In this document: piece by piece, positions 6,127-62,415 of the stretch
Layout of the letters: each line of letters begins with the position of its first letter
Position numbering within the stretch: the stretch's first letter is position 1
Origin: Chiloscyllium plagiosum
Lineage: Eukaryota
Length of the DNA: 64,000 nucleotides
Assembly (NCBI RefSeq): GCF_004010195.1
Contig: NC_057754.1
Coordinates: 7,912,747 to 7,976,746, forward strand
Reading direction: 5' to 3'
Notes under the pieces: model-generated
Databases searched by the model: none
What the model was told of the DNA's origin: nothing
The model's input: the letters and a program-made list of their open reading frames with translations, nothing else
Translations under genes and position numbers: made by a program

Positions 6127-6245
6127 ATTCCTGATGGGCTCCGGCCCGAAACGTCGATTCTTCTGCTCCTCGGACGCCGCCTGACCTGCTGTGCTTTTCC
6201 AGCAACACACTCTCGACTCTGATCTCCAGCATCTGCAGTCCTCAA
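6127..6245 (+). mobile_element. Short PLE terminal fragment, family A (degenerate HHR)
   Basis: attcctgatgggctccggcccgaaacgtcg...cctgacctgctgtgcttttccagca...atctccagcatctgcagtcctca. Confidence 0.8.
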
Positions 6246-6356
6246 TGACTCCTTCATGTCTCTGTCTGGCTGCAGTAAATAGAGCACAGGTTGCTACATT
6301 GTGCGGATCCCATTGGGTTTTGTAGAGCCGGAGCAGGCAATGCCTTTCCTCAGTCA

Positions 6357-6709
6357 AAAAATCTCAAAACCAGGTTATAGTCCAACAGGGTTATTTGGAA
6401 GTACTAGTGCTCGGAGTGCTGTTCCTTCATCAGGTAGCTGTGGAGCGGGATCATAAGACACAGAATTTATAGCAAAAGATCTCAGTGTTATGCATCTGAA
6501 ACGATATATTGAACAAACCTAGATTGCTGTCTCTGACACTGAGATCTTCTGCTATAAATTCTGTGTCTTATGATCCTGCTCCACAGTTATGTGATGAAGG
6601 AGCAGCGCTCCGAAAGCTAGTGCTTCCACATAAACCTGTTGGACTATAACCTGGTGTTGTGTGAGTTGTAACTTTGTCCACCCCAGTCCAACACCAGCAC
6701 CTCCACATT
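6357..6709. mobile_element. Fold-back PLE-derived element, family B, with ~130-bp inverted arms each holding an HHR-like motif
   Basis: Arms ~6357-6490 and ~6534-6663 are reverse complements. tgatgaaggagcagcgctccgaaagctagtg at 6592-6622. Imperfect 17-bp TSD atgcctttcctcagtca (6340-6356) / atggcttccctcagtca (6710-6726). Confidence 0.85.
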
Positions 6710-6784
6710 ATGGCTTCCCTCAGTCAGCCATCGAACAGTGAATATTTTTTCACATAATCTTTATGTTATAGAGTAATAGTCAAA

Positions 6785-7704
6785 GAGTCATACAACATGG
6801 AAACACCTTTCAGTTCCACCAGTCCATGCCGACCAGAATCCCAAACCAATCTAGTCCCACCTGCCTGCACTTGGCCCATATCCCTCCAAACATTTCCTAT
6901 TCATGTACTTATCCAAATGTCTTTTAAACATTGTAACTGCACCCACATCCATCGCTTCCTCTGGAAGTTCATTCCACACACAAACCATTCTCTGTTTTAA
7001 AAAAAAAAGTTGTCCCTTATGTATTTTTAAAAATCTTTCTCCTCTCACCTTCAAAATATGCTCCCTAGTCTTAAAATCCCCCACTTTACGGAAAAGACAC
7101 CATATCTATACCCCTCATAATTTTATAAACATCTAGAAGTTCACCCCTCAACCCCTCCAGTGAAAAAGATCCCAGTCTCTAACAGAATCCGTACAGTGTG
7201 GAAACAGGCCCTTCAGTCCAACAAGTCCTCACCGACTCTCTGAAGAGTAACCTACGCAGACCCATTCCCTGACATTTACCCTTGACTAGGGCACCTAACC
7301 TACACGTTCCTGATTTAGCACAGTCAATACACCTAACCTCACATGTTTAGATTGTGGGAGGAAACGGGAGCAAACCCATGCAGATACTGTGAGAATGTGC
7401 AAACTCCACACAGACAGTCGCCCAATGCTGGAATCAAACCCAGGTCCCTTGCGCTGTGAGGCAGCAGTGCTGACCATTGAGCCACCGTGTTCTCCTTCTA
7501 ACTCAAACCCTCCATTCCTGGCAACATCCTGGTAAATCTCTTCTGAACCCCCTCCACCTTAATAATATCAGTCCAGTGTCAGGACGACTAGAACTGCACA
7601 CAGCACTCCAGAAGAGGCCTGACCAACGTCCTGCCCAATCTCAAATTAACATCCCAACTCATATACTCAAAAGGCCTGAGCAATGCAGGCAAGCATGGTA
7701 AATA
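6785..7704 (-). mobile_element. CR1/HER1-like LINE 3' fragment with nested SINE (~7185-7488, minus strand)
   Basis: Minus-strand translation contains VWNELPEEAMDVGAVTMFKRHLDKYM, a typical CR1 ORF2 C-terminus. Confidence 0.85.
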
Positions 7705-8927
7705 GGAGAAAGTGAGGACTGCAGAGCTGGAGATCAGAGCTTAAAAATGTGTTGCTGGAAAAGCGCAGCAGGTCAGGCAGCATCAAAGGAGAAGGAGAAT
7801 CGATGTTTCGGGCATAAGCCCTTCAGGAATGAGGAGGGTGTGCCAAGCAGGCTAAGTTAAAAGGTAGGGAGGAGGGACTTGGGGGAGGGGCGTTGGGAAT
7901 GCGATAGGTGGAAGGAGATTAAGGTGAGGGTGANNNNNNNNNNNNNNNNNNNNNNNNNNNNNNNNNNNNNNNNNNNNNNNNNNNNNNNNNNNNNNNNNNN
8001 NNNNNNNNNNNNNNNNNNNNNNNNNNNNNNNNNNNNNNNNNNNNNNNNNNNNNNNNNNNNNNNNNNNNNNNNNNNNNNNNNNNNNNNNNNNNNNNNNNNN
8101 NNNNNNNNNNNNNNNNNNNNNNNNNNNNNNNNNNNNNNNNNNNNNNNNNNNNNNNNNNNNNNNNNNNNNNNNNNNNNNNNNNNNNNNNNNNNNNNNNNNN
8201 NNNNNNNCAGGGGAAGGTGCTGGGAGTGGAGGTTGGGTTGGTGGGGGGTGTGGACCTGACGAGGGAGTCACGGAGGGAGTGGTCTTTTCGGAACGCTGAT
8301 AGGGGAGGGGAGGGAAATATATCCCTGGTGGTGGGGTCCGTTTGGAGGTGGCGGAAATGACAAAGGATGATACGCTGTATATGGAGGTTGGTAGGGTGGT
8401 AGGTGAGGACCAGTGGGGTTCTGTCCTGGTGGCGATTTGAGGGGCGGGGCTAAAGGGCGGAGGAGCGGGAAGTGGAGGAGATGCGGTGGAGAGCATCGTC
8501 GACCACGTCTGGGGGGAAATTGCGGTCGTTAAAGAAGGAGGCCATCTGGGTTGTATGGTATTGGAACTGGTCCTCCAGGGAGCAGATGCGGCGGAGGTGA
8601 AGGAATTGGGAATATGGGATGGCGTTTTACCTAGATTACACTTCTTCCCACCCTGCCCCCTGTAAAAACTCAGTACCGCCTTCTTGACCTGCAATCTTCT
8701 TCCTGACCTCTCCGCCCCCACCCCCTCTCCGGCCTATCACCCTCACCTTAACCACCTTCCACCTATCGCATTCCCAACGCCCCTCCCCCAAGTCCCCCCT
8801 CCCTACCTTTTATCTTAGCCTGCTTGGCACACCCTCCTCATTCCTGAAGAAGGGCTTATCCCCGAAACGTCGATTCTCCTCCTTTGATGCTGCCTGACCT
8901 GCTGCGCTTTTCCAGCAACACATTTTT
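7705..8927 (-). mobile_element. Penelope-like retroelement, 5'-truncated, with inverted pLTRs and 14-bp TSD (contains gap 7934-8207)
   Basis: Minus strand of 8208-8630 reads NAIPYSQFLHLRRICSLEDQFQYHTTQMASFFNDRNFPPDVVDDALHRISS...RTPLVLTYHPTNLHIQRII... (PLE RT thumb/linker, one stop). 7741-7933 is inverted at the right end (to 8930). TSD aagcatggtaaata at 7691-7704 and 8928-8941. Confidence 0.92.
8841..8874 (+). ncRNA. Minimal type-I hammerhead ribozyme motif (family A)
   Basis: CTGAAGA (8844-8850), A, GGG cttatc CCC, GAAAC, GTC (8869-8871). Confidence 0.7.
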
Positions 8928-9629
8928 AAGCATGGTAAATAACCTTCTTAACCTAGATAATCATCCTTGCCCTCTAATTTTGCCAGGAGGACAGTCCAAG
9001 CGAGGTTAAAGTCCATGTACAGAAAGGAAAATTACGACCAAAGGGTCTGTTTCAGTGCTGTATGACTCTGTAACGTTAAAAGCCAGTACAGTTGGCGGAC
9101 TCTGACATGCTGGCCTGGCTTGACATGCGTACTTCAGAATGGAAGTCCAGTGTCACCACTCCATTCATCTTTTCTTTCCATACCAATTCCCCTTCTCTCC
9201 TGCATTAACTGTATTCAGAGAAGATGGTTCGGTCAGAGAGAAAATAATTCTACTCGGATCATAAGTACCTTGAAGTACGACGACTCGCCTTCTCTCTTGC
9301 GACCGCTTTTATTATTCATAATATGTGATTTGATAATTAAGAGATACTTGCCCTCTCCTTTCATTAATCTTTAATTAAATGTGTTAACTGAGGCTCAGAG
9401 GGTAATGTGCTGTCTTTCAGCTGGAAGTTAGAAAGTCATGACTTCCAAGTCGCACTCCAGAGGCGTGAGCACTCCAGTCCCGAGGGAGTACTTTCCACTT
9501 CAGCTGGCGTCTTTCACAAGAACATAACAGCTGGCGGCAGGAGTAGGTCCCTGTTCAGCCCCTTGAGCCTGCTCCGCCCTTTGATGCGATCATGGCTGAT
9601 CACATGTCAGCCTCAACTCCCACTTCAGT

Positions 9630-9956
9630 GGGCGGCACGGTGGCACAGTGGTTAGCACTGCTGCCTCACAGCGCCAGAGACCCGGGTTCAATACCCGCCT
9701 CAGGCGACTGACTGTGTGGAGTTTGCACGTTCTCCCCGTGTCTGCGTGGGTTTCCTCCGGGTGCTCCGGTTTCCTCCCACAGTCCAAAGATGTACAGGTC
9801 AGGTGAATTGGCAATGCTAAATTGCCCGTAGTGTTAGGTAAGGGGTAAATGTAAATGTAGGGGTAGGGGTATGGGTGGGTTGCGCTTCGGCGGGGCGGTG
9901 TGGACTTGTTGGGCCGAAGGGCCTGTTTCCACATTGTAAGTAATCTAATCTAATCT
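9630..9956 (+). mobile_element. Full-length, low-divergence HE1/V-SINE-like SINE
   Basis: A box (tggcacagtgg), B box (ggttcaatacc), central core, LINE-like 3' end and (taatc)3 tail. Confidence 0.93.
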
Positions 9957-10600
9957 TTTACGACTGCTGTCTGTAACCCTCCTGCCCATTGCTACTTAAA
10001 AAAATCTATCCGCTCCTTAAATTTAGTCAATGTCCCAGCATCCACCACACTCTGGGAGAGTGACTTCCACAGATTGACGAAGAAATTTCTCATAATCACC
10101 TCTCGTTTTAAACGGGCCACCCCTTATCCGAACACGATGACCTCTCGTTCTCGATTGCCCCACGTGAGGAAGCATCTTCTCGATGCCAGCTTTGTCAATC
10201 TCCTTTAGTATCTTATTTACCTCAATTAGATCTCCTCTTCCAAACTCAAGAGTGTAGGCCACAGCTGCTGAAACTCCCTTCGTAAAACAAACCCCTCTAC
10301 TCTAGAATCAATCTTGTGAACCTTGTCTGAACTGCCTCTGTTACAACTGCATCCTTCCCCGAATGAAGGGACAGAACTTGTACGCGGTGCTCCAACTACA
10401 GTCTCACCAATACCTGGTACAATTGCAGCAACACTCCCCCACTTGCATACTCTGTCCTTTAGCAATGAATGCCATCATTTGTATTTTTGATTACCCACTA
10501 TTCATGTATACTAGTTTTCTGAAATTCATGCACAACAGCCACCCAGATCCCTCTACACCAGAGCACTCTGAAATTTCTCTCCGTTTACATAAGTTATCTT
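9957..10600 (-). mobile_element. CR1-like LINE fragment
   Basis: Minus-strand translation contains RGDLIEVNKILKEIDK...SRTRGHRVRIRG. Confidence 0.8.
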
Positions 10601-10980
10601 TCTATTATTCTGACCATTTTGTGACTGTGACCCCCTAGTTTGAGTCTCCCCTTAAGGTATTCAAACCTGTCAAACCTCTCAGAATGTGTTCTGTTTCAGT
10701 AAGTGCATCGCTCATTCCTCAAAGCTCTAACGGCCGTCGGCCCAAGCCGCTCAATGCTTCCTTATAAAACAAACCCCTTCCTCGATGATTGAGCGTTTTC
10801 GGAAGTTCCTGCAATGCAAAGTATATCTCTCCTCAGCAACATTTTACCATTAACAGGGATGGATGAAGAAGCACTTTTCTCTGAGTGTTGAGAGTCTTCC
10901 TCAAAAGGAAGCAGATGCAGAATCTAAAAAATATTTCTAAGACTCAGGCAGATAGATTCTTCATTACCAAGGGATAATCA

Positions 10981-11171
10981 TGATTTGGAGATGCCGGTGT
11001 TGGACTGGGGTGGACAAAGTTAAAAAATCACACAACACCAGGTTATAGTCCAACAGATTTAGCATTCGGAGCGACGCCTGAGAACCACCTGATGAAGGAG
11101 CGTGGCTCTGAAAGCTCGTGTGCTTCCGATTAAACCTGTTGGACTATAACCTGGTGTTGTGTGATTTTTAA
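10981..11171. mobile_element. Fold-back PLE-derived element, family B, with 12-bp TSD
   Basis: Inverted aaaatcacacaacaccaggttatagtccaacag / ctgttggactataacctggtgttgtgtgatttt. TSD aagggataatca at 10969-10980 and 11172-11183. Confidence 0.88.
11086..11120 (+). ncRNA. Minimal type-I hammerhead ribozyme motif (family B)
   Basis: cac-CTGATGA-a-GGAGC gtg GCTCT-GAAA-GCT-C-gtg: stem I cac/gtg, 5-bp stem II, AGCU palindromic stem III. Confidence 0.75.
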
Positions 11172-12054
11172 AAGGGATAATCAAGGGTGTGCAGGCTCAG
11201 AGAGCTGAGGTTGAAATCAGATTAGTCATGATCTTTATTGAATGTCTTAGCAGATTCGAGGGCTGAATGGCCTGTATCTAGCTTGGTATGGTCCAGTGTG
11301 ATAATACAAAGCTGAGTTGGACAATAAACTGTGAGGACAGCGCAAAAAGAGGAGGTGGTGGCAAAATTGGATTCGTAAAAGGGCAGACTATTTGTGTAAA
11401 CAGGGGAGGTGATGGCGTATTGGTATTATCACCAGAGTAGTAATCAGGCGGACTGTTTACATAAAGAGAGGAGGTAGTGCGATGTTGGTACTATCCCTGG
11501 ATTAGTAAGCAGGCGGATAGCTCCTGTGCACATCCCACTGTGTTTGCTGTTTATGAAAATCCTCAGAGGTGATTTGCCGCAGCCAGGCCCCCTCCTGTGA
11601 TTGGAGACGTCGCTGTAACTTCACCAGCAACCTGCCCTTGCCCGCCTTGGTCCCCTTCAGATCTTAGCTGTCATTAAAAACTTGGAACCCCGCTATTCCT
11701 GCAATGTTTTTGTGTAATCTACGGTGAAGGGTTACAAAATATTTGCTCAATGACTCGAAGGGACCCCCTGTTTACTTTTGCTCGTCTCTTCCTCCTAATG
11801 AACCTGCAACAGTTTGTGCGTTCTGATTTTGTTTATTCTAGTTTACTGTCACATTCTGCTTCCTTCCTTTTTATCCATCTGTTGTATTCAAATCGCTGCC
11901 ACCAATTGCTCCCTTTCAGAAATATTTCATTGGATGCCCTAAAGTTGCGGAAGTTGCCATGATAGTGCAAGTCTGTGTTTTGGTTGTAGAGTCATAGAGT
12001 TAAACAACATGGAAACGGATGCTCTATGTACTGTGGACTGGATTAACTAATCCA

Positions 12055-13360
12055 TAGAACGTAGAACTGTACAGGACAGGAATGGTCCCTTTGGCCCACA
12101 ATGTTGTGTTGAATATGACACGAAATTAAGCTAAACCCTTCTGCCTGCCCTTGGTTCATATCCCTTCATTCCTTGCACATTCATATGCTGACTTAAAATC
12201 CTATCTGCCTCCCCCACCACACCTAGCAGCACTTTCCAGACTCCTATCACACTCTGTGTAAAACACTTGCCCCTCACATCTCCTTTGAACTTTCTCCCTC
12301 TCACCTTAAATGCATGCCCTCGAGTATCAGACATTTCAACTCTAGGGGAAAAGGATTCTCACCATCAATCCTATCTATGCATCTCATAGTTTTATAGACG
12401 TCTATCAGCCCCTCAGCCTCTGCTGCTCCAGAGAAAGGAACCTGAGTTTTTTTGTCCCAACCTTTCCTTATGGCTCATAGCCTCTAATCCAGGCAATACC
12501 CTCTTCTGCACCCTCAACAAAGCCGCCACCACCTCCTTCCTATAATGGGGCAATGCTCTATGTGGAACATCATCCCAAACTGAATTAATCCCACCAATTT
12601 GACCCGAGCCCAAGCTTTTTCTATTCATGTATATATCCGAGTGTCTTTTAAAAATTGCAATTGTATCTACGTCCACCACTTCCTCAGGAAGTTTGTTTTG
12701 CATGCGAACCACCCTCTGTGTAAAATATTTCTCATGTCTTTTTTAAATCTCTCTCCTCTTAGCTTAAGAATGTTCCCCCCCTAGTCTTGAAATCCCTCAT
12801 CCTAGGGCAGAAGACACCTATCATTAATCCGATCTGTACCCCTTATGATTTTATAAATCTCTATAATGTCACCTCTCAACCTCCTACGCTTCAGGGAAAA
12901 AAAGTCCCAGCCTTTCTTTACAACTCAAACCTTCCATACCAAGCAACATCTTCTGAGCCCTCTCCAGCTTAATAATATCCTTCCTACATCTGGGCGACCA
13001 GAACTGGACTTAGTATTCCAGTCGACCTGTATTCCTGATGAAGGGGTTTTGCCCGAAACGTCGATTTTCCTGCTCCTGGGATGCTGCCTGGACTGCTGTG
13101 CTTTTCCAGCACTTCTCTAATCTAGACTCTGGTTTCCAGCATCTGCAGTCATTGTTTTTACATAGTATTCCAGAAGAGGCCTCACCAATGTCCTGTAAAA
13201 CTTCAACATGACGTCCCAACTCCTATGTTCAAAGGACCGAGCAATGAAGGCAAGCGTGCTAAACACCTTCCTCACCAGCCTGTCTGTGTGCGAAGGAAAC
13301 CTCAAAGAATTGTGTGCCAGGGAGCCTAGGTTCCTCTGTTCTACAATGCTACCCAAGGCC
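12055..13360 (-). mobile_element. Two adjacent CR1/HER1-like LINE 3' fragments
   Basis: Minus-strand peptides TRGHAFKVRGRKFKGDVRG, NKLPEEVVDVDTIAIFKRH and LKFYRTLVRPLLEY. Confidence 0.85.
13022..13162 (+). mobile_element. Short PLE element, family A, with intact HHR core and 11-bp TSD, inserted in a LINE
   Basis: CTGATGA at 13035-13041, GAAACGTC ending at 13062. TSD tagtattccag at 13011-13021 and 13163-13173. Confidence 0.88.
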
Positions 13361-17174: not shown

Positions 17175-18305
17175 GTTATTTGGTTTATTGTTGTCACATG
17201 TGCCGAGGTACAATGAAAAGTTTTGTTTTGTGTGCCGTGCAAGCAGACCATACCATACAAAGTGCATCAGGGTAATAGAACAGAGCGAGGAATACAATGT
17301 TACAGCTTCAGAGGTGATTAGATTAGATTCTCTACAGTGTGGAAACAGGCCCTTCAGCCCAACAAGTCCACACCGCCCCTCCGAAGAGAAACCCACCCAG
17401 ACCCATTCCCCTACCCTATATTTACCCCTGACTAACACACCTAACACTACGGTCAATTTAGCACGGCCAATTCACCTGACCTGCACATCTTTGGATTGTG
17501 GGAGGAAATCGGACCACCCGAGGAAATTCATGCAGACACGGGGAGAACGTGCAAACTCCACACAGACAGGCGGGCATCCAACCTGGGTCCCTGGTGCTAT
17601 GAGGCAGCAGTGCTAACCACTGAGCCACTGAGCCACTGTGCCACCCCCATAAGGTGCACAAAGAATAGGACCAACATTAAATATAAAATTGATGAAGGGC
17701 TTTTACCCGAAACGTCGATTTCGCTGCTCCTTGGATGCTACCTGAACTGCTGTGCCCTTCCAGCACCACTAATCCAGAATCTGGTTTCCAGCATCTGCGG
17801 TCATTGTTTTTACCTCGTAAAATTTGAGGGGTCCATTCAGCAGTCTAACAACAGTGGGGAAGAAGCTGTTCTTGAATCTGTCAGTCGGTGCGAATAAGCT
17901 TATGTATCTTCTGCCAAACGGAAGAGGTTGGAAGAGATTACAACTGGGGTTGGAGGGGTCTTTGATGATGTCGGCTGTCTTCCTGAGGCAGTGGGAAGTG
18001 TAGATGGAGTCAATGGATGGAATCCCTGAAGAATGGTCACTGGACCCGAAATGTTAACTCTAATTTGTCTTCACAGATGCTGCCAGACCTGCTGAGCTTT
18101 TCCAGCAACTTTTGTTTATGTTTCTGATTTACAGCATCCGCAGTTCTTTCGGTTTTTAACAGGCGGAAGGTTGGCTTGCATGATGGATTGGGCTGTGTTC
18201 GTAACTCTCTGTAGTTTCTCACAGTCCTGGGCAGATCAGTTGCCACACTGAGCTGTGATGCATCCAGAGAGAAAACACTTTCTGTGGTGCGTCTGTAAAA
18301 ATTGG
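17175..18305 (-). mobile_element. Rex1/Babar-like LINE 3' end carrying three nested insertions
   Basis: Minus strand reads, with frameshifts, NFYRRT...SGCITAQCGN...LQRV..TAQSI...SIDSIYTSHCLRKTADIIKDPS...LPFGRRY...FKNSFFPTVVRLLN, typical of the Rex1/Babar ORF end. Nested SINE 17317-17650 and PLE pieces 17690-17815 and 18025-18160. Confidence 0.75.
17690..17815 (+). mobile_element. Short PLE element, family A
   Basis: tgatgaagggcttttacccgaaacgtcg...ccagcatctgcggtcattgtttttacc. Confidence 0.85.
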
Positions 18306-18882: not shown

Positions 18883-18969
18883 TGAAGGGCTTAGGCCCGA
18901 AACGTCTATTCTCCTGCCCCTCGGATGCTGCCTGACCTGCTGTGCTTTGCCAGCACTGCACTCTCGACA
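18883..18969 (+). mobile_element. Short PLE element, family A, truncated within the HHR
   Basis: tgaagggcttaggcccgaaacgtc..., flanked by cagtcacc(c)attg on both sides (18873 and 18970). Confidence 0.75.
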
Positions 18970-19316: not shown

Positions 19317-19452
19317 AAAGGTAAAAACAATGACTGCAGATGCTGGAAACCTGATTCTGGATCAGTGGTGCTGGAAGAGCACAGCAATTCAGGCGAAGCT
19401 CCTCGGATGCTGCCTGAACTGCTGTGCTCTTCCAGCACCACTGATCCAGAAT
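19317..19452. mobile_element. Fold-back PLE fragment (family A tail) with 13-bp TSD
   Basis: Inverted attctggatcagtggtgctggaagagcacagca / tgctgtgctcttccagcaccactgatccagaat. TSD attgtcaggaaca at 19304-19316 and 19453-19465. Confidence 0.87.
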
Positions 19453-24260: not shown

Positions 24261-25239
24261 AGCAAATGCATAGGACTGAAGGATCTCCAACAGCAGGAAG
24301 ATAAGTGCTGGAAAATGCACAGCCAGTCAGGCAGCATCCGAGGAGCAGGAGAGTCGACGCTTTGAGCATGAGCTCTTCATCAGTCCTCGGTTTCTCCTCG
24401 GGGGAAGGTAACACCCACAATGTAGCTGTGACTGCCATGGGCCTTAATAAGCTGAGGGTTGGCATACATTCCCTGAAGGAGGCCTCTGGATCTCTGAAAC
24501 AAAAACGCTCGGACCATTGCAGTTGACAGGGAATAAGGCAAATTACATTTAAGGTGATTCCAGACAAAGACGTGAGGGAGAAAGGAGTAGAAGGTTATGT
24601 TGATGAGGAGAGCTGGGCTAGCAGGAGGCTTCAGTGGCATTGGCCCGATGGAGCGAATGGCCGCTTGCTGTTCAGTAACTCCCCTGCAATGCAGAGAAAC
24701 CATCTGGAGCATTGCCACACTGCCGATTCACTGTGTACACATGGCGACGTTTAGATATTTGCTTTGATGACTCCGACACGCTCTCATTCTCTCGCTATCA
24801 CATCGCTGCTCAAATTCAAATCAATTGTTCTGCAAATTCTGCCTTTCCGAACCTCTTGACTATCCAGACATCCAGCTAAAACTGCTTGTGATTGGTTTGT
24901 TGTTTCTGATCCAGTTTTTCCAAAAGGGCTGAGACAACGTCTAATGAAGCTCATTCATCTTGCACTGTCACTTTTGAGGAGCTAAAGAACAGTAGGTGCA
25001 TCAATTAAAATGGATATCTTACCTTGAGCTGTGTAAATCTGCTTGCAGATTTTCTTATATCCCTCGACTATGTGATCATTGATTTCTGTCAGTTACTGTA
25101 TTCTAGGAAAACAAGGTTAGGAAGAGCCTGTTCTGCCAGTCCTTTAGATCCTGTCTAATTGTACTGTTTATTTTCTTCGGTTCACTTCGGGAGAGGTGAC
25201 TAATGCAGAATATACCAGTCTAGAATCTGGGTTGAGGCA

Positions 25240-25368
25240 GATGTGGGTACTGCAGATGCTGGAGGTCAGAGTCAAGATTAGAGTGGTGCTGGAAAAGCAC
25301 AGCAGGTCAGGCAGGATTCGAGGAGCAGGAAAATCGCCGTTTCAGGCCGGAGCCCTTCATCAGGAATC
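25240..25368 (-). mobile_element. Short PLE element, family A (HHR cleavage triplet mutated)
   Basis: Reverse complement attcctgatgaagggctccggcctgaaacggcg. Confidence 0.82.
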
Positions 25369-26330: not shown

Positions 26331-26384
26331 GGGGGAGAGAGAGGGCACGGTGTTCGAGAATGCAACAAGCTAAGCTCAAAGAAA

Positions 26385-27163
26385 GGAGAATGAGTTCACA
26401 GTCTGAAGCTGGACGTTAAGTCCAGAAGGTTGCAAAGTGTCCAGTCTGAAGATGAGATGTTGCCCCTCTGGTTTGGGCTGTGATTCACAGGAGCATTACA
26501 GTGTACCGAGGACAGCCACGTGGGCATGTGAGCAGGATGCTGTGTTAAAATGACCGGCTATGGGAAGGTTGAGGTCGACCCTCCGCACAGACGGAGGTGT
26601 TCTGCAAAGTGATCACCCAGTCTGTGCTTGGCTTCTCCAGTGTAGAGGAGGCCGCACTGTGTGCAACGAATGCAGTCGACCAGATTGGAGGAGTCGCGGG
26701 TCATGTGCCGCTTCACCGGGAAAGGTGCTTAGGCCTTTGGGTGGTGAGCAGGGAAGAGGTGGAGGGACAGGAGTTGCACCTGCTGTGATTACATCGGACG
26801 GTGGTGTGGGAAGGGAGGGCAGTGTTGGTTGTTATCAAGAAATGGACTAGGATATCCCAGAGGGAAGGGTCCCTGTGAAATGCAGACAGGGGAATGAGGG
26901 CAAGATGTGTTTAGTGGTGGCGTTCTGCTATAGTTGTCTGAAATGGCAGAGGATGATCCTTTGAATATAGAGACTGGTGCATAAAAAGATAGGCCAAGGG
27001 GAATCTGATCACGCTGTTGTGAGTATGCTGCCCCTTCCACACTTTACATCAGCTCTAAGAAAGAGTCATCTGGATTCAAAACGTTAGCTTGCCGTCTCTC
27101 CACGGATGCTACCTGACCTGTTGTGATTTCCAGCATTTTCTGTTTTCAGTGCAGATTCCAGCA
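26385..27163 (-). mobile_element. Degenerate PLE with GIY-YIG endonuclease remnant and inverted terminal piece
   Basis: Minus strand DSSNLVDCIRCTQCGLLYTGEAKHRLGDHFAEHLR ... QHLIFRLDTLQPSGLNV. An opposite-orientation pLTR-like piece at 27050-27163 is split by a SINE. Confidence 0.8.
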
Positions 27164-27485: not shown

Positions 27486-28259
27486 CTGCAGTAATTTGCT
27501 CCTACGTTCATATTTTTATGTCAGCCAGGGCTCCCTGATTGGACCAGATTAGCAGCCCCAGTCAGGGAACTCATATTCTGAGTTACAATCACTACACTTT
27601 CAGCACAGCCATGCGATTTTCAGCTAAATATGGTCCCCGAATTCAGCTTTTCTCATTCCCTGGCTTACCATTATCCATTCCTTTTGTCTGCCTGTCTTTC
27701 TCTCTCTCTCTGGGCTCTGTCTCCACCTATATACCTCCTCCTTTTCCCCCTCAACTCCTGTCTCAAGCCTATATACTACGTTTCCGTAGCTACAGTCAGT
27801 TCAACAAAAGGCTAACTGGACCTGAAATGTTAACTCTGCTTTCTCGCCAGACATGTTGCGTTCCTTTAGTTATGCAGTAGTTCAACTGCATTTGTATGGA
27901 ACTGGAGTTGCATGTACAATCTGACTAAGGGAAACTGTTTTGTTTTCCTACAGGATATTTGTGAGCCACTTGGGATTTTGATATTTTTCGAAAGCTTCAT
28001 GGTCGCTTTCACTGTAACTCGCATTTTATTACCAGGTTTTATTTCCAATTGAATTCAAATAACGAGAGCACAGTGGGATTTGAACTCACGTTCTCAATGC
28101 AGAGACATAACTGTTGCTATTCCAGGCCTAGCCCTCAATTGAATAAATGCAGAAAATCCTGATGACGTTCCTAATCTGCATGGATCTTTGTGAACTGTGA
28201 TAGAGAAACACAATTCCAACAGGCTTTTATGCACTTAATTTAAAAAAAAAATGAAATCT

Positions 28260-28995
28260 TTGCATATGCTAGAAATGTGAAATTGAAAACAAACAATGCT
28301 GGAGAAACTCAGCAGGTCTGGTAGCATCTGTGCAGAACAAATGTTAATGAGAGAGTTAATGTTTTGAGTCTGTGCTTCCTTTTCAGAACTAAAGGAGGTT
28401 GGAAAATGGTTTTTTCAAAACATTTTTCATTCCTGATGAAGGGCTTTTGCCCGAAACGTTGATTCTCTTGCTCCTCGGATGCTGCCTGACCTGTTGTGCT
28501 TTTCCAGCACCACTCTAACCTAGACCCTGATCTCCAGCATCTGCAGTCCTCACTTTTGCCCCGTTTTGTTTTTATGAATGAATGGAACAGAAACCAAAGG
28601 TGCTCAGAGGAAAAGACAAGGGAGTGCTAATGTTAGCAAAGGAGCGATAGTGATGTAAAATAGGTGTGAATGGTAGGTGTGAAAAGGAGAAAATGGGACC
28701 ACTTTGCAGAGAGCAAAGTCAACAGGACACTGTGTGTGTGTGTGTGTGTGTGTGCGCGCAGTAAGAATCAGGGCAGAGAAGGTGCTCTGATGTGGTGTAA
28801 CTCATTATTGTGTAAAATGCCTAAGCGGAAACCGAGGTGTTGCTCTTCCAACATGCATTAAGCTTCTTTGGAACAGTGTAGCCAATGGGCATGAGACTGG
28901 AAAGGGGGGATCATCCTTATGGACAGAGCAGAGGTGTTCTGCAAAATCGTCACCCAGTCTGTGTTTGGTATCACCGAGTGTGGAGGAGACTACTT
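28260..28995 (-). mobile_element. Degenerate PLE 3' end (GIY-YIG remnant plus pLTR) with nested family A insertion
   Basis: Minus strand GDTKHRLGDDFAEHLCSVHK and LEEQHLGFRLGIL. Terminal motif tgctggagaaactcagcaggtctgg. Confidence 0.7.
28429..28560 (+). mobile_element. Short PLE element, family A, with intact HHR core
   Basis: CTGATGA (28433-28439), A, GGGC tttt GCCC, GAAAC, GTT (28458-28460). Confidence 0.88.
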
Positions 28996-32068: not shown

Positions 32069-32572
32069 CACTCTGTAACAGTTTTAAATGTGTCTGTTAG
32101 CTCTTTTTGATATGACCAGGAACATAGACCTTCCTCCTTTGATGGTTTGTGGCATTAACTCCTTGCTCTCTTCTGTCATAGAGTCCTATAGCATGGAGAC
32201 AGGCCCTTCGGCCCAAACCGGTCTATGCTGACCAAAATGTCCATCCACACTCAGCCCATTTCCCTGCACTTAGCCCATATCCTTCTCACCCTTTCCTATC
32301 CATGTATTTGTCCCGATGCCTTTTAAATGTTGTTAATGGACCCGCCTCAACCACTTACACTGGCGGCTCATTCCATAAGCGTACCACCCTCTGTGTAAAA
32401 TAGTTGCCCCTCAGGTTCCCTTTTATTCTTTCCCGTCACCTTGTACTAATGGCCTCCAGTCGTCAATTGCCCAACTTTGGGAAAAAGTCTGAATGTATTC
32501 ACCCTATCATCCTCTCATGATCTTATACACTTCTATAAAATCCCACCTCAGTCTCTTAATGCTGTCAAGAAA

Positions 32573-32692
32573 TGATTTGGAGGTGCCAGTGTTGGGGTGT
32601 ACAAAGTTAAAAATCACACAACACTAGGTTATAGTCCAACGGGTTTATTTGGAAGCACTAGCTTTCGGAGCACTGCTCCTTCGTCAGGTGGG
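32573..32692 (-). mobile_element. Short PLE element, family B, with intact HHR and 10-bp TSD
   Basis: Reverse complement of 32656-32690 is cac-CTGACGA-a-GGAGC agt GCTCC-GAAA-GCT-A-gtg. TSD tgtcaagaaa at 32563-32572 and 32693-32702. Confidence 0.88.
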
Positions 32693-33158
32693 TGTCAAGA
32701 AAAGCTCTCAAGAAAAGTGTCCTGGCTTGTCCAACCTCTCCCTACAACTTGAATCCTGGCAACATCCTTGTAAATTTCTTCTGCACGCTTTCTAGTTTAA
32801 TAACGTCCTTCCAGTAACAAGGTGACCAGAACTGAACACAATACTCCAAGTGCGGCCTCACTAACATCCTGTACAACAGCAATGAAACTCCCCAACTTCT
32901 ATCCTCAATGCTCTGACTGATGAAGGCCAATGTGCCAAAGGTTTCTTCACTGCCCTGTCTACCTGGGACTCCACTTTCACCTGAACTCTGAGGTCTCTCT
33001 GTTCCACTACAGTCCTTAAGGCTCTACCATTCACCATGAAACTCCTCCCTTGATTTGACTTTCCAAAATGTAAGACCTTACACCTGTCTATATTAAACTC
33101 CATTTGCCATTTCTCGGCCCATTTCCCCAGCTGATCAAGGTCCTGCTGCCATTTCTGA

Positions 33159-33260
33159 CGAAACGTCGATTCTCCTGCTCCTTGGATGCTGCCTGACCTG
33201 CTGCGCTTTTCCAGCAACACATTTTCAGCTCTGATCTCCAGCATCTGCAGTCCTCACTTC
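33159..33260 (+). mobile_element. Short PLE element, family A, 5'-truncated inside the HHR, with 13-bp TSD
   Basis: Begins cgaaacgtcg. TSD ctgccatttctga at 33146-33158 and 33261-33273. Confidence 0.88.
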
Positions 33261-34208: not shown

Positions 34209-34774
34209 AATTGTGCATAAACTAGATACAAGTTACAATATCCCATCTTTTGTTTTTCCTTGAAACAAGTTATCCTTATGGATGTATGATTGAAGTAAGA
34301 TCTATTACCTGGGTGAGTGTGAGGTGTTGCACTTTGGGGGATCAAATGTTAAGGACAAGTTTGCAGTTAATGGCAGGACCCTGAACAACATTGATGGACA
34401 GAAGAATCTTGGGGTTCAAGTCTATAGCTCCCTGAAAGTGNNNNNNNNNNNNNNNNNNNNNNNNNNNNNNNNNNCCTTCCTCCGGGTGCTCCGGTTTCCT
34501 CCCACAGTCCAAAAGTGTGCAGGTCAGGTGAATTGGCCATGCTAAATTGCCCATAGTGAAGGGGTGAAGGGGTAAATGTAGGGCAATGGGTCTGGGTGAG
34601 TTACTCTTCGGAGGGTCGGTGTGGACTTGTTGGGCCGAAGGGCCTGTTTCCACACTGTAGGGAATCTAAATTGTGCATAAACTAGATACAAGTTACAATA
34701 TCCCATCTTTTGTTTCTCCTTGAAACAAGTTATCCTTATGGATGTATGATTGAAGTAAGATCTATTACCTGGGT

Positions 34775-38334: not shown

Positions 38335-39345
38335 CTTCAACAAGGGCACTTGCAATGCTTGCCTTGATTAGTTCGAGCATAGAGTTGAAGAGCAGGGAGG
38401 TTATGCTGGAACTCTGTCAAACATTGGTTAGACCACGGCTAGAGTATCATGCACAGTTCTGGGATCCACAGTATTGGAGGGATGGGACAGTATTGGAGAG
38501 GACATTTCCCGGGATGTTGCCTGAACTGAAGGATTCCAGGTATGAAGAGAGAGTGGACAGACCGGAGTGTTTCACTTGGAGCAGAAGAGGGTGAGTGGGG
38601 ATATGTTTGAGACGTGTAAAGTTATGAAGAGGATACAGAAAGTAGACAGGAAGACGCTTCTCTTTGGTGCAAGAGTCAGGGACCAGGGGGTATCAACTTA
38701 AGGTAAGGGGCAGGAGGTTTTAGAAGGATAAGACTCAGAGTCATCCAGCATGGATGGATGACTCTGAGTCTAATCCTTCTAAAACCTCGGATGGATGACT
38801 CTTGGTCTAGCCAGTCCACACCATCTATGTTCCCAAACTAAACTCGTCCCGCCTGCCTGTGCTTGGCCCATATCCCTCCAAACATTTCCTACTCTTGAAC
38901 TTATCTAAATGGTTTTTTTTAAACTTTACAGCTGTACCTGCGTCCACCACATTCTGTGGCAGTTCATTCCAGACACGAACCAGTCTGCGTAAAAAGATTG
39001 TCCCTCATGACTTTTTAAAATTCTCTTCCTCTCAGCTTAAAAGTAGGTCCCCTAGTCTTGAAATTCCCCACCTTCAGGAAAAGACCCTTGTTGTCAACCT
39101 TATCTATGCCCCTCAAGATTTTATAAACCTCAGTAATATCTCCCCTCAACTTCTTATGCTGCAGTGAAATAAATGTCACAGTCTTTCCTAGTCTATTTTT
39201 ATATCTAAAAGCTTCTAGTCCCAGCTAACCCTGGTAAATCTTTTCTGAAGCGTCTTTAATTTAATAATATCCTTCCTATAGCAAGGCGACCAGAACTGAA
39301 CACAGTATTTCTCCAGACGAGGCCTCACCAACGTCCTGTACAACC
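38335..39345. mobile_element. Two tail-to-tail CR1-like fragments (+ strand 38335-38730, - strand 38735-39345)
   Basis: IELKSREVMLELCQTLVRPRLEY on the + strand, followed by a reverse-oriented HER1-like 3' end. Confidence 0.8.
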
Positions 39346-39424
39346 TCAGTTCTCTGTCTGTTGGTGTCTTTCTCTGTCTCTGTATCCATCCTTCCTGTTT
39401 CTATCATTCTGTCTTTTTCTGTCC

Positions 39425-39565
39425 AGGAGAAAGTGAGGACTGCAGATGCTGGAGATCAGAGTCGAGAGTGTGGTGCTGGGAAAGCACAGCAGGGTCAGGC
39501 AGCATCCGAGGGGCAGGAGAATCGATGTTTCGGGCATAAACATTATGCCCAACACGTCGATTCTC
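39425..39565 (-). mobile_element. Short PLE element, family A, with small 5' inversion and 16-bp TSD
   Basis: TSD ctgtctttttctgtcc at 39409-39424 and 39566-39581. Inverted gagaatcgatgtttcgggcataa / ttatgcccaacacgtcgattctc. Confidence 0.87.
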
Positions 39566-43975: not shown

Positions 43976-44173
43976 CAATATCCGAGGAGCAGGAAATTCG
44001 ACGTTTTGGGCAAAAAGCCCTTCATCAGGAATACAGCCTCTCTTCCTGATGAAGGGCTTTTGCCCGAAACATCGATTTTCCTGCTCCTCGGATGCTGCCT
44101 GGCCTGCTGTGCTTTTCCAGCACCACTCTAACCTAGAGTCTGGTTTCCAGCGTCTGTAGTTCTTGTTTTTACC
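43976..44173. mobile_element. Fold-back PLE element, family A, with two back-to-back HHR motifs and 11-bp TSD
   Basis: Minus-strand motif ~43998-44028, plus-strand motif CTGATGA 44046-44052 to GAAACATC 44073. TSD tatcttttatc at 43965-43975 and 44174-44184. Confidence 0.9.
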
Positions 44174-53237: not shown

Positions 53238-53520
53238 TAGAGTGTGTGGTGCTGGAAAAGCACAGCCGGTCAGGCAGCGCCCGAGGAGCAGGCGTGTCCA
53301 CGTTTCGGGCAAAAGCCCATCATCAGGAATGAGGCTTGTGAGCCAAGGGGGGCCGAAAGATAAATGGGAGGGGGGCCTGGGGCTGGGGGATGGTAGCTGA
53401 GAGTGCGATAGATGGAGGTGGGGTAGAAGGTGATAGATCGGAGAGGAGGGTGGAGCAGATCGGTAGGAAAGACAGTGGACAGGTCATGAGGGCGGTGCCA
53501 AGTTGGTGGGCTGTGTCTGG
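53238..53520 (-). mobile_element. PLE pLTR fragment, family A
   Basis: Reverse complement attcctgatgatgggcttttgcccgaaacgtgg (H17 mutated to G), plus a purine-rich pLTR body similar to 7830-7933. Confidence 0.8.
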
Positions 53521-56960: not shown

Positions 56961-57315
56961 GGTGAAGGAGGTCGTGACAGTGCGGTCGTGTAAAACGGTG
57001 AAGGAGGGTGACAGTGAGGTGGTGTCTAACGGTGAAGGATGGTGACAGTGAGGTGAATGTCTAACGGTGAAGGAGGGTAACAGTGAGGTGGTGTCTAACG
57101 GTGAAGGATGGTGACAGTGAGGTGGTGTCTAACGGTGAAGGATGGTGACAGTGAGGTGGTGTCTAACGGTGAAGGGTGGTGACAGTGAGGTGGTGTCTAA
57201 CGGTGAAGGATGGTGACAGTGAGGTGGTGTCTAACGGTGAAGGAGGGTGACAGTGAGGTGGTGTCTAACGGTGAAGGATGGTGACAGTGAGGTGGTGTCT
57301 AACGGTGAAGGATGG
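56961..57315. repeat. 34-bp minisatellite, about 10 copies
   Basis: Unit ggtgacagtgaggtggtgtctaacggtgaaggat. Confidence 0.93.
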
Positions 57316-58199: not shown

Positions 58200-58845
58200 A
58201 AGCGGACTGAGAGTAGGAGAGAGAGAGAGAGAGAGACAGATGTTGACAGACCAAGAGAGAGTGAATGAGAGACAAAGACAATGGGTGAGTGCGGGACAGA
58301 CAGAGAAGTGAGGCAGAAATGGAGAGAGATAGGCAGAAAGATAGGCTGAGAGAGTGGGAGAGAGAGAAGGAGAGCTGGAAAAAGAGAGAGAGAGAGAGAG
58401 GGGGGGGAGACAGCGAACGACACACACACTGGGAGAGAATGAGAGAGGCGGACAGAAAAAAGGACAGGGGAAAACAGACAGACAGTGATAAGCAGATCGG
58501 GAGAGGACAAGAGAGAGGCAGACAGAGAAAAGGAGAGGGGAAGACAGATGAAGGTGCAGAGGGTAGGTGAGATGGGAAACCTTTTAGAATGTACATGAAT
58601 GTTGTGACATTTCAACTAACATTCAACATCGTGGGCCTGTTCTGGGAAGTGGGAATAGTGTAGATTTACAGTAGATCTTCGTCAGCACAGACTCAGTGGG
58701 CCAAAGGACTTCTTCTGTACTGTATACTTCGATGAGACAGACGGAGAGAGGTGGACCAAGAGCAAAACAGAGACAGACAGAATATAAAGGAGAGAGGGAG
58801 AGAGAGAGGAACAGACGGAGAGAGTTAAATAAAGAGACAGGGCTG
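58200..58845. repeat. Purine-rich (GA/GACA) low-complexity tracts
   Basis: Imperfect (ga)n/(gaca)n at ~58200-58570 and ~58730-58845. Confidence 0.85.
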
Positions 58846-59636
58846 GAAAGCAGCTATGTTGCAGGAACAGGTTGCAGAAAAAGACTTGCATTTATGTAGC
58901 ACCCTTCACAGCTGCAGGACTGCCCAGAGGTATTTGGCTTTCAAAGTCTCCGCTGGAATCTTGTACTCCCTGAGGGTGTCATAGAAAGTAAAAACCCACT
59001 CCCACCCGTTTGTGATCCTGAGACTCCCAAGGGGTCTCGTTCCAACACTAGCCATTGCCTCCGGTACAGGGCAGCCACCACTTCACCTCGGGGTCTCGAT
59101 TTGATGGAGTGGGGTCAGGCAAGGAGCGCCGCCCCTGCCAAATCAGCGAACAGTTCAGCTGGACATTCACTGGAAGAGGCTACGCGAGTGCCCCCTTCCC
59201 CCAACCCCTTTCCCACCCACATCTGCTCCCCCTATAGTCACATAGGAATGCAGGTGTGGCAGCCCAGCAAGGTGGCAGAAACGGCACTCGTTATGGCACA
59301 AGTGGTCTGTTCCAGTCATCTTAGTTGTAAAGTATCAGCTATTACCTTTCCCTCATCTCTGTCCTACCTGGGCGGCCCCTTACTCTGAGATGATGACCTC
59401 TGGGCATAGATGCTCCCAAAAGGGGGAAGAGCCTCTGCACGTCTACCCCGCCCAGTCCCTGAAGAATCTTGCATGTTTCAAGAAGGCTGCTGAGTCTAAT
59501 TCTTACAAATTTCAAGTAAACATGTTCTCAACCTCAAGTCGTAAATATAAAAGACCGTGAAAGAGTCAGTGCAGGCCAGTCAGCCCATCGAGTCCACACT
59601 CTGCCATTCAGTTTGATCATGGCTGATCTGATAACC

Positions 59637-59832
59637 CTCCACTCCATCTTGCCTATCCCCCATAATCCTCCACTCCTTCTTGCCTATACCCCATAATCCT
59701 TCGGTCCTTCTTGCCTATCCCCCATAATGCTCCACTCCTTCTTGTCTATCCCCCGTAATCCTCCACTCCTTCTTGCCTATCCCCATAATCCTTCAGTCCT
59801 TCTTGCCTATCCCCCATAATCCTCCAGTCCTT
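59637..59832. repeat. ~31-bp tandem repeat (about 6 copies) inside a LINE 3' end
   Basis: Unit ctccactccttcttgcctatcccccataatc. Confidence 0.85.
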
Positions 59833-60407
59833 ACCTGATTAAAAGTCTATCTCAACCTCGCATGTACTTAATCATCCAGTTCTGATTGCCTTTTGTGATA
59901 AAGAATTCCACAGATTCACGAGCCCCTGAGAGAAGAAATTCTTCTTTATTTCAGTCCTAATTGGACTGAGATGATACCCTCTGGTCCTTGACTCTCCCAC
60001 AAGCCCCTTGATATCCATTCTGTGAAGTCTGCTGGGAATGTTGCATGCTTCAGTAAGGTCGCCCCCTCATTCCTCGAAATACCTAATGAGTACAGGTCCA
60101 ACCTACTCAACCGCTCCTTGTAAGACCCAGGATCAGCCTAGTGAAGTGTGAATGGTGCCCAATGAGCCATGTCATGTCTGACAGCAGATTGGATCCTTGG
60201 ATGGATCATCTTCGTGTTCAGAAGATGACAGAATGAAAGACAGTGAACGTAGCTTTAATCCTTAATGGCCAAAGAGATTTATTCAACAGGAAAGAACAAT
60301 AACAGCTGTCAGAGAGTACTTGAAAAGTAGTCGCTCAGTTTTGCAAGATGAGGTGATGGCAAGGGGAAATTGCAGGGAGGCAGGGTGGAAAGACAGGCTG
60401 ATGATAT

Positions 60408-61110
60408 AGAGTCAGACAGCACGCAAACAGACCCATCAGTCCAACTCGTCCATACCCACCACGTTTCCTAAATTAATCTTGTCCCATTTGCCAGCATTTG
60501 GCCCATATCCCTCTAACCCATCCTATTCGTGTACCCATCCAGATGCCTTTTAAATGGTGTCATTGTACCAGCCTCCACCACTTCCTCTGGCAGCTCATTC
60601 CATATATGTACCACCCTCTGCATGACAAAGTTGCCCCTTAGGACCCTTTATATCTTTCTCCATCTCACCTTAAGCCTATGTCGTCTAGTTTTGGACTCAT
60701 CCACCCCAGGGAAAAAAACTTGGCTATTTACCCTATCCATGCCCCTCATGATTTTATAAGCCTCTATGAGGTCACCCCCTCAGCCTCCTACTGTCTGGGG
60801 TAAAAAGCATATAGAGTCTCTTCTTGCAAGGTTTGGTACTTCACACCTTCCAGACTTGGTAACAGCGTCATATATCCTTTTTGCACCCTTTCCAGTTGAA
60901 TAACATCCTTCCTGTAGCAAGGGACCAGAAATGTACTCCCACTGTGCCTCACCAATATCTTGTACAGTTATAACAAGACGTCCCAAATCCTGCACTCAGT
61001 GCACTAACCAATGAAGGCAAGCATGTCAAATGCTTTCTTCACCACCCAGTCTCCCTGTGACGCCACTTTCATCGAACTGTATACCTGCACCCCTCTGTCT
61101 GTTCAACAAC
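60408..61110 (-). mobile_element. CR1/HER1-like LINE 3' fragment
   Basis: Closely similar to 44208-44752 (ccagcctccaccacttcctctggcagctcattccat). Confidence 0.87.
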
Positions 61111-62046
61111 ACTAGTCAGGAATATGGAGTCGAAGCCAGCGTCAGATCCACCATTGAATGGAGGAGCAGGATAGAGGGGCCAAATAGCCTGTTCCTAATC
61201 CATTTTGTCAGCATGCAGGAAGCTGGCGCAGTCAGACTGAAGAGCCCATTGCCGCACAGAACACAGGATCATTTACTGAGACAGCGACAACAAAAAAACA
61301 CGTTTTGTTTTGAAGTTTAGCAGGTGCAGACCTCTTTAATTCTTTCCCGGCACCTAGAAGAGCAAAAATAGCTTCATTCCTGGACAAACTCTCCGTGTGT
61401 GTGTGTTGCTGTTGTCAGGCAGTTGACTTGTTCAAGTGTCGTGTTGGTTGGCGACTTTATTTGAAATGGATAGATGACTATTTGAAGGTGGTAGGCTGTT
61501 TTTCAAATTATCGCCATCCTCTGCAGAGCTTGGCAAACGACCCTACCTAATCTTACCCACAATCGTTTTGCTTGAATATTGCCAAATGCTACAGAAGCAT
61601 TCCGTCTTGCCCTCATCAGGACGAATGCAAGAATGCCAGACTTGAAATGGAACAACTGTTTAGACCATGGGGGGAAATAGAATGGTGATCACGCATCCCT
61701 CGATTTTGAGAGTTTGGGGAGCCTGGGATTCTGTGTCACCTTCTCCACAGCAACTCCTTGGCCAATCAGAGCTGCCTCGCTGACCAATCCCGAGGGACAG
61801 ACTGGGGGATGATGGTCGACGGTGGGGGTTGGCCGAGGAACATTGAGGGCAGGGAGCGGCTTTTGGTTTCCGAGGTGGGGAGGAGGTGAGCCATCGTGGG
61901 TCGCGTCCTCCACTCGACGGTGCGCATTTATGTAGCGGCTCTCACCTCCTCAGGAGAGTACATCACAGCCAGCAAGGCACTGAGCCACTCGCGTGAGGAA
62001 AGACAGTCGTCGCAATGAGCTGTTGTGCAATGACTGCGTTTGATGA

Positions 62047-62242
62047 TTTGGAGATGCTGGTGTTGGACTGGGGTGTACAAAGTTAAAAATCACACAACAC
62101 GGGTTTAATTGGAAGCACTAGCTTTCGGAGCGACGCTCCTTCATCAGGTGGTTGTCTGATGATGAAGGAGCGGCGCTCCAAAAGCTAGTGCTTCCAATTA
62201 AACCTGTTGGACTATAATCTGGTGTTGTGTGATTTTTAACTT
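62047..62242. mobile_element. Fold-back PLE element, family B, with two opposed HHR motifs and 12-bp near-perfect TSD
   Basis: Reverse complement of 62116-62150 is cacCTGATGAaGGAGCgtcGCTCCGAAAGCTAgtg (intact). The plus copy ~62160-62190 is mutated. TSD tgcgtttgatga 62035-62046 / tgcatttgatga 62243-62254. Confidence 0.88.
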
Positions 62243-62295
62243 TGCATTTGATGAGGAAGGCTTAAGTATCAGCAGGGCCAAGCACATACAAGGCG

Positions 62296-62415
62296 AAAGT
62301 GGGTACTGCAGATGCTGGAGATTAGAGTCAAGATTAGAGTGGTGCTGGAAAAGCATAGCAGGTCAGGCAGCATCCGAGGAGCAGGAGAATCAATGTTTCG
62401 GGCAAAAGCCCTTCA
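62296..62415 (-). mobile_element. Short PLE element, family A, truncated in the HHR
   Basis: ...gagcaggagaatcaatgtttcgggcaaaagcccttca. Confidence 0.82.

Follow-up and report, generated by a model that had tools for sequence, protein, structure and literature searches.

The stretch analysed here (the window) comprises 64,000 nucleotides of the Chiloscyllium plagiosum genome, contig NC_057754.1 (G000:C45:7912747-7976746; genome size 3.56 Gb), and carries short insertions of two sequence families, A and B, with a minimal hammerhead ribozyme motif. These tiny elements are almost certainly pieces of the ends of Penelope-like elements (PLEs) that were made by PLEs. Their 5′ ends pile up sharply at the 5′ edge of the hammerhead, and truncation is not smooth. 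Judged from sequence, the units are likely to be complete complementary DNA (cDNA) copies of the first 95–130 bases of PLE RNA. We are evenly divided on a fuller reading, in which the hammerhead-plus-tail segment would stand at both ends of that RNA, like the R region of a retrovirus, and the stubs would record the transcription start, the sites of reverse transcription and a hammerhead that is seldom cut.

Families A and B and their Penelope-like partners

The family A motif is CUGAUGA-A-GGGC-UUUU-GCCC-GAAA-CG-UC and the family B motif is CUGAUGA-A-GGAGC-NNN-GCUCC-GAAA-GC-UA. Both are like the minimal hammerheads of PLEs as set out in the text of Cervera and De la Pena (2014, PMC4209133): they share the CUGANGA and GAAA boxes, the unpaired base between positions 9 and 10.1, the G10.1-C11.1 pair and the palindromic dinucleotide at 15.2-16.2, which is CG in family A and GC in family B. 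They lack a proper helix III, and their helix I is short and weak. Among 88 aligned family A copies the 10.1-11.1 pair is G-C in 66, G-U in 15 and A-U in one. Helix II is 92.5% paired across these copies, and the weak helix I, with three pairs, is 81% paired. One helix II pair has changed from G-C to A-U in six family A copies; double-change cells number 11, compared to 2.9 ± 1.6 after shuffling (none of 500 shuffles reached 11), and this compensatory change may be a single inherited event. Because the copies are dead, conservation of the core over its flanks within a family, which the earlier note had proposed as a test of ribozyme function, says little. A better argument for the putative ribozyme is that the core is kept around three different helix II sequences, namely GGGC/GCCC in family A, GGAGC/GCUCC in family B and GGUC/GACC in a related third family, C.

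A search of the window with Rfam gave no match at gathering scores and 16 matches at E ≤ 10, none of them a hammerhead, as expected because the motifs lack helix III. Rfam microRNA models matched the family B hairpin at 62103–62203 on both strands (47.7 and 45.6 bits, under the gathering score of 81) on account of its long-hairpin shape only.

Chance does not account for the motifs in the window. The family A core has six matches at no more than three mismatches (none expected, 100 shuffles), the family B core has four (none expected, shuffles) and the 32-base tail motif of family A has 14 (none expected). A strict minimal-hammerhead descriptor, a check suggested earlier, found seven intact motifs (mean over 100 shuffles, 0.04), the rest being truncated or mutated copies. 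Comparison of the window with itself by blastn gave 19 family A pieces, the reference copy counted and two of them belonging to family C, and four family B loci, that is, about 22 insertion events. The earlier claim of at least 15 insertions in two families is thus borne out. All ten insertions described as bounded by clear direct repeats were confirmed in place, each repeat having 10–15 matching bases and at most one mismatch, with inserts of 102–357 bp between them and a single one of 1223 bp (7705–8927), which supports the separate insertion of each element. The density of family A in the window is ordinary, with 17 matches in 64 kb compared to 183 in 1 Mb of other chromosomes.

The family A tail has at least 2907 candidate matches genome-wide. 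In longer copies it is preceded by a 3′ untranslated region (UTR) of about 330 bp and then by an open reading frame (ORF) with the residues LYIGETGR...AEHFNSPSHS; the ORF at L018:858-1487 scores 22.6 bits against Pfam GIY-YIG, a value equal to the cut-off. Further 5′ lie YINDC and KPADKGG frames, which are typical of PLE reverse transcriptases (RTs). Among 992 candidates the family A protein had only two relatives, uncharacterised proteins of Chiloscyllium punctatum and Rhincodon typus with 62% identity. These two shark proteins have weak GIY-YIG and RVT_1 matches (GIY-YIG 23.2 bits for P0002). With the N-terminal 147 residues as query there were 24,730 candidates.

Two genome searches with family B returned at least 3807 and at least 5109 candidates. 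Family B is the last ~550 bp of a longer element and has a CA-rich low-complexity stretch 5′ of it. On the same strand, 5′ of family B tails, there are degraded KPADKGG, YTRYIDD (YIDD) and WYIGKTKRTL frames; the WYIGKTKRTL frame has no Pfam match and is 27–40% identical by tblastn to the family A endonuclease (EN). RVT_1 scores 22.7 bits for the family B stretch L061:5809-6027 (E 9e-5) and for P0002, both under the cut-off of 29.6, and part of the RT of these PLEs reads N in this genome. Both families are the predicted 3′ ends of PLEs with an RT and a GIY-YIG endonuclease, the latter being the putative C-terminal enzyme that places them among the EN+ PLEs. Because degraded RT and EN frames precede its tails on the same strand, family B has a predicted coding partner elsewhere in the genome, outside the window. 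The earlier statement that no such partner is visible therefore holds within the window and fails beyond it, while the element at 7705–8927, to which family A had been tied as an RT-coding PLE, is indeed a PLE copy but lacks the RT catalytic core. The broader claim, that Penelope-derived elements here carry a PLE-type minimal hammerhead motif, finds support at the level of sequence.

The family B tail is separated from the endonuclease ORF by a degenerate CA/CT-rich repeat (cacacac, ctctctc) of a few hundred bases, at a position that is conserved among copies (L061:7000-7340; L032:380-1250).

Ends and arrangement of the short copies

The positions of the ends were determined in an unbiased sample of 1.064 Mb, consisting of five 200-kb blocks from other chromosomes and the window. 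It holds 190 family A copies, 176 of which extend past the predicted cut site. The 5′ starts of these 176 copies, relative to the cut, are distributed as follows.

At or beyond -86: 29 copies
-85 to -38: 4 copies
-37 to -21: 88 copies
-20 to -1: 30 copies
0 to +20: 21 copies
Beyond +20: 4 copies

The modal starts are -31 (16 copies), -32 (11) and -30 (11). Among the 45 young copies (at least 88% identity), 21 start between -37 and -22, none between -85 and -38, and 12 at or beyond -86. The smooth truncation continuum that the earlier note had named as the finding that would speak against a distinct class was not seen, half of the copies (88/176) starting within 17 bases and four in the next 48. 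The flank upstream of the 139 short copies for which it was analysed is unique in 60, an inverted arm in 71 and common to another copy in only eight, and the pile of 5′ ends is therefore no artefact of alignment or of diverged upstream sequence. Apparent sharp 5′ boundaries at L005:1296, L169:1318 and L179:1460 were rejected as artefacts of the query copy, since other copies run on upstream. Starts exactly at +1 past the predicted cut occur in five of the 176 copies, compared to zero to two at neighbouring positions, a faint hint that some templates may already have been cut. Among the ten copies with starts from -2 to +7, none is fused to U6 at the cut site.

Target-site duplications (TSDs) are variable in length (10–17 nt). 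Scores of at least 11 were reached by the TSDs of 28 copies, compared to one in a reversed-flank control; two of these 28 cases are repeats of 54–57 bases and not ordinary TSDs. The 57- and 54-base direct repeats flank family A fragments at C1:22329-22389 and C10:45668-45708, in contrast to the usual TSD of 10–17 bases. Single copies bounded by TSDs start 0–17 nt before CUGANGA, mostly within 13 nt, or just inside the box.

The 3′ ends fall at two fixed points about 35 bases apart: +57 to +63 or +94 to +100 past the predicted cut in family A, and +52 to +58 or +84 to +90 in family B. This is like the anole Poseidon element, for which two adjacent internal start sites of reverse transcription and cleavage of both target strands have been reported (Frangieh et al. 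2024, PMC11167929), so that the two ends would correspond to two RT start sites.

About half of the copies are arranged as head-to-head pairs. Neighbours within 400 bp among the 190 family A copies form 42 head-to-head, seven same-strand and four tail-to-tail pairs; direct tandems are seldom found, with just one or two of the seven same-strand pairs abutting. A tail on a single arm is seen in 31 of the 37 close pairs of family A (35-base tail) and in 15 of the 18 pairs of family B (33-base tail). The turning point differs from hairpin to hairpin, many arms turning inside helix II, and each hairpin was therefore made anew. The text of Craig et al. (2021, PMC8557442) describes complex insertions of EN+ PLEs that consist of a pseudo-LTR (LTR, long terminal repeat), an adjacent inverted and 5′-truncated copy and a one-sided 30–40-bp tail, and reports that heavy 5′ truncation is known for PLE insertions. 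The head-to-head arms, one-sided tails, variable TSDs and heavy 5′ truncation seen here are alike; in contrast to the PLEs described there and to the anole element, most insertions here are only 95–250 bp long and would hold the leader alone.

Long and short copies have the same tail variants, and long copies are equally close to short and to other long copies (distance 0.070 in both cases). The units begin downstream of a conserved TATA-like box and thus lack the putative promoter. Because they have subfamilies in common with long copies and lack this promoter, they appear to be by-products and not a self-propagating class. Neither a promoter nor master lineages of their own, as expected of a short interspersed element (SINE), were found, no search having been made for a pol III-type head. 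The alternative posed in the earlier note, a SINE-like class or extremely truncated PLE copies, resolves in between: the units are PLE end-pieces that form no smooth series and have no lineage of their own.

Candidate transcription start at the 5′ boundary

In 23 of 31 long family A copies (hand count; subfamilies 66–95% identical) TTTATCT or TTATCT lies 36–40 nt 5′ of CUGA, and tcATTCc stands directly 5′ of CUGA; the modal 5′ end of the copies is 30 nt past the TAT of this box. In all 11 long copies of family B that were listed, gcTATAAATtc lies 38 nt 5′ of CUGAUGA, and the short arms of this family begin at about ctccaca, 25–30 nt past that box. Of 23 loci retrieved together with a 5′ UTR, five have a hammerhead-plus-tail segment on the plus strand that continues without a break into the 5′ UTR (...cactttctcc/tagaagattttaacc...), and PLE RNA therefore appears to begin and to end with this segment. 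The start lies at -30, -22 and -36 in three of these five long copies; a fourth turns in helix II, and the fifth, a partial tandem, reaches at least 100 nt further upstream and includes the box.

In four loci (L180, L183, L188 and L194, ~1460–2180) we observed internally deleted PLE copies, in which the 5′ UTR and the ORF start are joined directly to the hammerhead-plus-tail segment. The junction differs per locus (-31 in L194, -22 in L183, ~-150 in L180, ~-50 in L188), a pattern suggestive of a template switch in the course of reverse transcription.

In our proposal, a promoter within the 3′ UTR (pseudo-LTR) would start transcription at the 5′ edge of the hammerhead, with tcATTCc as an initiator-like element. 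PLE RNA would then begin with the hammerhead-plus-tail segment and end with the same segment. The PLE enzyme would nick both target strands and begin reverse transcription inside the RNA, at one or the other of two neighbouring sites; initiation in the 5′-proximal segment would run off the template after ~100 bases (95–130). Any dead copy still bearing the promoter box could supply, as an alternative template, a short read-out RNA. Two run-off cDNAs joined head to head would give the hairpins. The hammerhead would be carried along within the leader, most templates being uncut, and the units, born without the box, would be dead ends.

Several observations weigh against this proposal. The 5′ ends anchored by TSDs scatter over 0–17 nt before the box; an extra 5′ G, as expected from a copied cap, was not seen, two of 15 TSD-bounded single copies beginning with G, a sample too small to reject it; and only three of the five informative long copies start between -22 and -36. 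The family A box TTTATCT is no more than TATA-like, and its assignment to a promoter element, like that of tcATTCc to an initiator, is our assumption, based on consensus motifs. Short copies are slightly closer to one another than to long copies (0.091 ± 0.005, subsampled to equal number, compared to 0.109), and some older short subfamilies may lack long partners in the sample. In one raw poly(A) single-cell run, read on both strands, there is no pile of read starts at the hammerhead edge. In the Penelope element of D. virilis, according to the texts of PMC8557442 and PMC4209133, the start site precedes an intron whose end is at helix I, so that a start right at helix I would be a variation on this arrangement.

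In this RNA run (X19) and two contig sets both strands show a 6- to 20-fold increase in depth at the hammerhead's 5′ edge, with loose ends at -31, +53 to +58 and +97; no position at which molecules begin or end was reported. This step is due to copy number and not to expression, and it is no test of expression, start site or cleavage.

It is possible, although we regard it as unlikely, that the boundary marks an enzyme stop: structure or a bound protein would cause the RT to fall off long RNAs just past the hammerhead, and the short copies would be products of ordinary 5′ truncation. Heavy 5′ truncation of PLE insertions is on record (text of PMC8557442), the RNA needed for insertion of the anole element overlaps the hammerhead region (PMC11167929), and here many arms turn inside helix II and 51 of the 176 copies start between -20 and +20. 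However, an enzyme arriving at the boundary has already crossed the GC-rich helix II, the position lies 30 nt past a conserved A/T-rich box in both families, copies that extend over 3 kb, as far as the 5′ UTR, terminate there or close by, and only four of the 176 copies have their end within the following 48 nt. The stop beyond helix II, the spacing from the box and the shared boundary of the long copies speak for an RNA 5′ end at this boundary and against a stop of the enzyme.

We consider it quite improbable that the short copies form a self-propagating non-autonomous class, SINE-like or of the non-LTR retrozyme kind, with short masters of its own that PLEs mobilise in trans. They do fall into a discrete size class (95–135 bp), their slightly closer relationship to one another would fit such masters, and vertebrate non-LTR retrozymes related to PLE pseudo-LTRs, including one of a cartilaginous fish, are described in the text of a preprint (bioRxiv 10.64898/2026.07.22.740005). 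Yet the direct tandems that are the hallmark of retrozymes are rare (seven same-strand against 42 head-to-head pairs), the units start past the A/T-rich box and would lack a promoter, their tail variants are common to long copies, and the individual turning points indicate that the hairpins were not copied from one another but made anew.

Miniature inverted-repeat transposable elements (MITEs), that is, DNA transposons with terminal inverted repeats in which the hammerhead-like core is a chance match, would account for the long inverted arms, the flanking direct repeats and the microRNA-model matches on both strands of 62103–62203, but were rejected as having next to no chance of being right, as TSD length varies, the arms are unequal with a one-sided tail, each arm is the 3′ end of an element with RT and GIY-YIG endonuclease, and single non-palindromic copies are common (60/139).

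Relation to known elements and features of the window

As in the genomes treated in the text of PMC4209133, where motifs run to thousands per genome, most of them isolated and "probably related to truncated PLEs", others in opposite-strand pairs 100–700 bp apart, the hammerheads of C. plagiosum number in the thousands and are either single or inverted. That text does not cover cartilaginous fish (the word "shark" is absent from it), and it leaves undescribed the start position of short copies, which here constitute a discrete class with its start at helix I, on the 5′ edge. Animal non-LTR retrozymes, as portrayed in the texts of Cervera and De la Pena (2020, PMC7229834) and the Li et al. 2026 preprint, are likewise non-coding sequences with hammerheads that have a relationship to PLE pseudo-LTRs and depend on PLE enzymes. 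They differ in forming direct tandem arrays with type I hammerheads and circular RNAs, whereas the copies here are single or inverted and only rarely in direct tandem. The anole ORF starts inside the hammerhead, while the ATG in loop II of family A opens only 10 codons in older variants and 25 in the young variant.

Much of this is already in print, as far as the texts of these sources go: the minimal hammerheads of PLEs, their spread as single motifs and their opposite-strand pairs (PMC4209133), inverted copies, the one-sided tail and truncation (PMC8557442), two-site internal initiation (PMC11167929) and PLE-derived non-coding hammerhead repeats (2026 preprint). In the main text of open-access papers we found nothing on PLE hammerheads of sharks or on 5′ ends of short copies tied to a start site. 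The elements are thus of a known kind, and the discrete class of putative leader copies is a modest mechanistic clue.

The movement of PLEs is still poorly understood, with one in vitro study available (PMC11167929), and the role of the hammerhead is open. If the boundary is an RNA 5′ end, the stubs would map the promoter and transcription start of two PLE families without experiment, as well as the in vivo use of two internal RT start sites and priming from both target strands; they would show that most templates still had an uncut hammerhead, and hundreds of thousands of them would constitute a genome-wide record of PLE transcription start. In genome annotation, hairpins of 90–250 bp of this type should be labelled PLE fragments and not MITEs, microRNA precursors or a new SINE.

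The insertions of the window are listed below; hairpins are given without a strand.

2274–2337, minus strand: family A fragment; starts inside the hammerhead, ends ~+62 past the cut site
6122–6244, plus strand: family A single copy, ~130 bp; starts 8 nt 5′ of CUGAUG; TSD tcatgtctc(a/t)gtc
6357–6713: family B head-to-head hairpin, 357 bp; 33-nt tail on the right arm, none on the left; TSD 6344–6356 / 6714–6726
7705–8927, minus strand: family A PLE copy, 5′-truncated, with tail; coding stretch following the RT at 8255–8626; joined to an inverted plus-strand arm at 8628–8927 without the 35-nt tail; TSD aagcatggtaaata
10983–11171: family B hairpin, 189 bp; tail on the left, none on the right; TSD 10969–10982 / 11172–11185
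13022–13159, plus strand: family A single copy, 138 bp; tail variant ending in ...cattgttttt; starts 13 nt 5′ of CUGAUGA; TSD 13008–13021 / 13160–13173
17690–17800, plus strand: family A single copy; begins at the hammerhead box
18025–18157 (approximate), plus strand: family C, cctgaagaatggtcactggacccgaaatgttaac followed by an A-like tail
18884–18955, plus strand: family A copy without tail; starts within the hammerhead
19317–19452: family A hairpin, 136 bp; turn 3′ of the hammerhead; tail on the left arm; TSD attgtcaggaaca
24306–24383, minus strand: family A copy of a subfamily with helix II GAGC/GCUC
25283–25367, minus strand: family A copy, minimal hammerhead motif intact
28215–28390 (approximate), minus strand: family C copy
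28427–28540, plus strand: family A single copy, motif intact
32575–32692, minus strand: family B single copy, 118 bp, tail present; TSD 32563–32574 / 32693–32704
33159–33260, plus strand: family A copy, 102 bp; starts with cgaaacgtc, within the hammerhead; TSD ctgccatttctga
39424–39565, minus strand: family A copy, 142 bp; short inverted 5′ piece with its turn in helix II; TSD of 15 nt
43978–44173: family A hairpin, 196 bp; tail on the right arm, both arms extending to the 5′ edge of the hammerhead; TSD tatcttttatc
53245–53504, minus strand: family A copy of greater length (at least 260 bp), from an older subfamily; includes 3′ UTR with the cccatttatctttc box
62047–62242: family B hairpin, 196 bp; tail on the left arm; TSD 62035–62046 / 62243–62254
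62339–62414, minus strand: family A copy; starts inside the hammerhead box

The minus-strand stretch 8255–8626 of the PLE copy at 7705–8927 matches residues 178–301 of the shark PLE protein with 77% identity, which corresponds to the part that follows the RT. Pfam searches of this coding stretch and of several single frames gave no match. Positions 7934–8207 of the element read N, and its endonuclease part is unreadable because of such runs. Runs of N at 4982–5817, 7934–8207 and 34441–34474 of the window, and in many fetched loci, cover coding parts of PLEs.

An endonuclease-region remnant of another PLE family lies at 26382–26892 on the minus strand, where three frame pieces match residues 285–454 of P0001 with ~44% identity. 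The family A tail at 25283–25367, ~1 kb downstream on the same strand, may be the end of this remnant.

Within the family B hairpin at 6357–6713, the 267 bases at 6440–6706 recur with 100% identity, the hairpin included, at G000:C40:21892956-21893222 (L022); the source is a recent segmental duplication or else a duplicate in the assembly. A different short repeat (...gtgcaaactccacacagacag...gaggcagcagtgctaaccactgagccac...), probably a SINE, adjoins PLE stubs at 7350–7490 and 17540–17650. A near-perfect hairpin at 38695–38811 is unrelated to families A and B and has weak Rfam matches to IMES-3 and MIR2118, far under their gathering scores.

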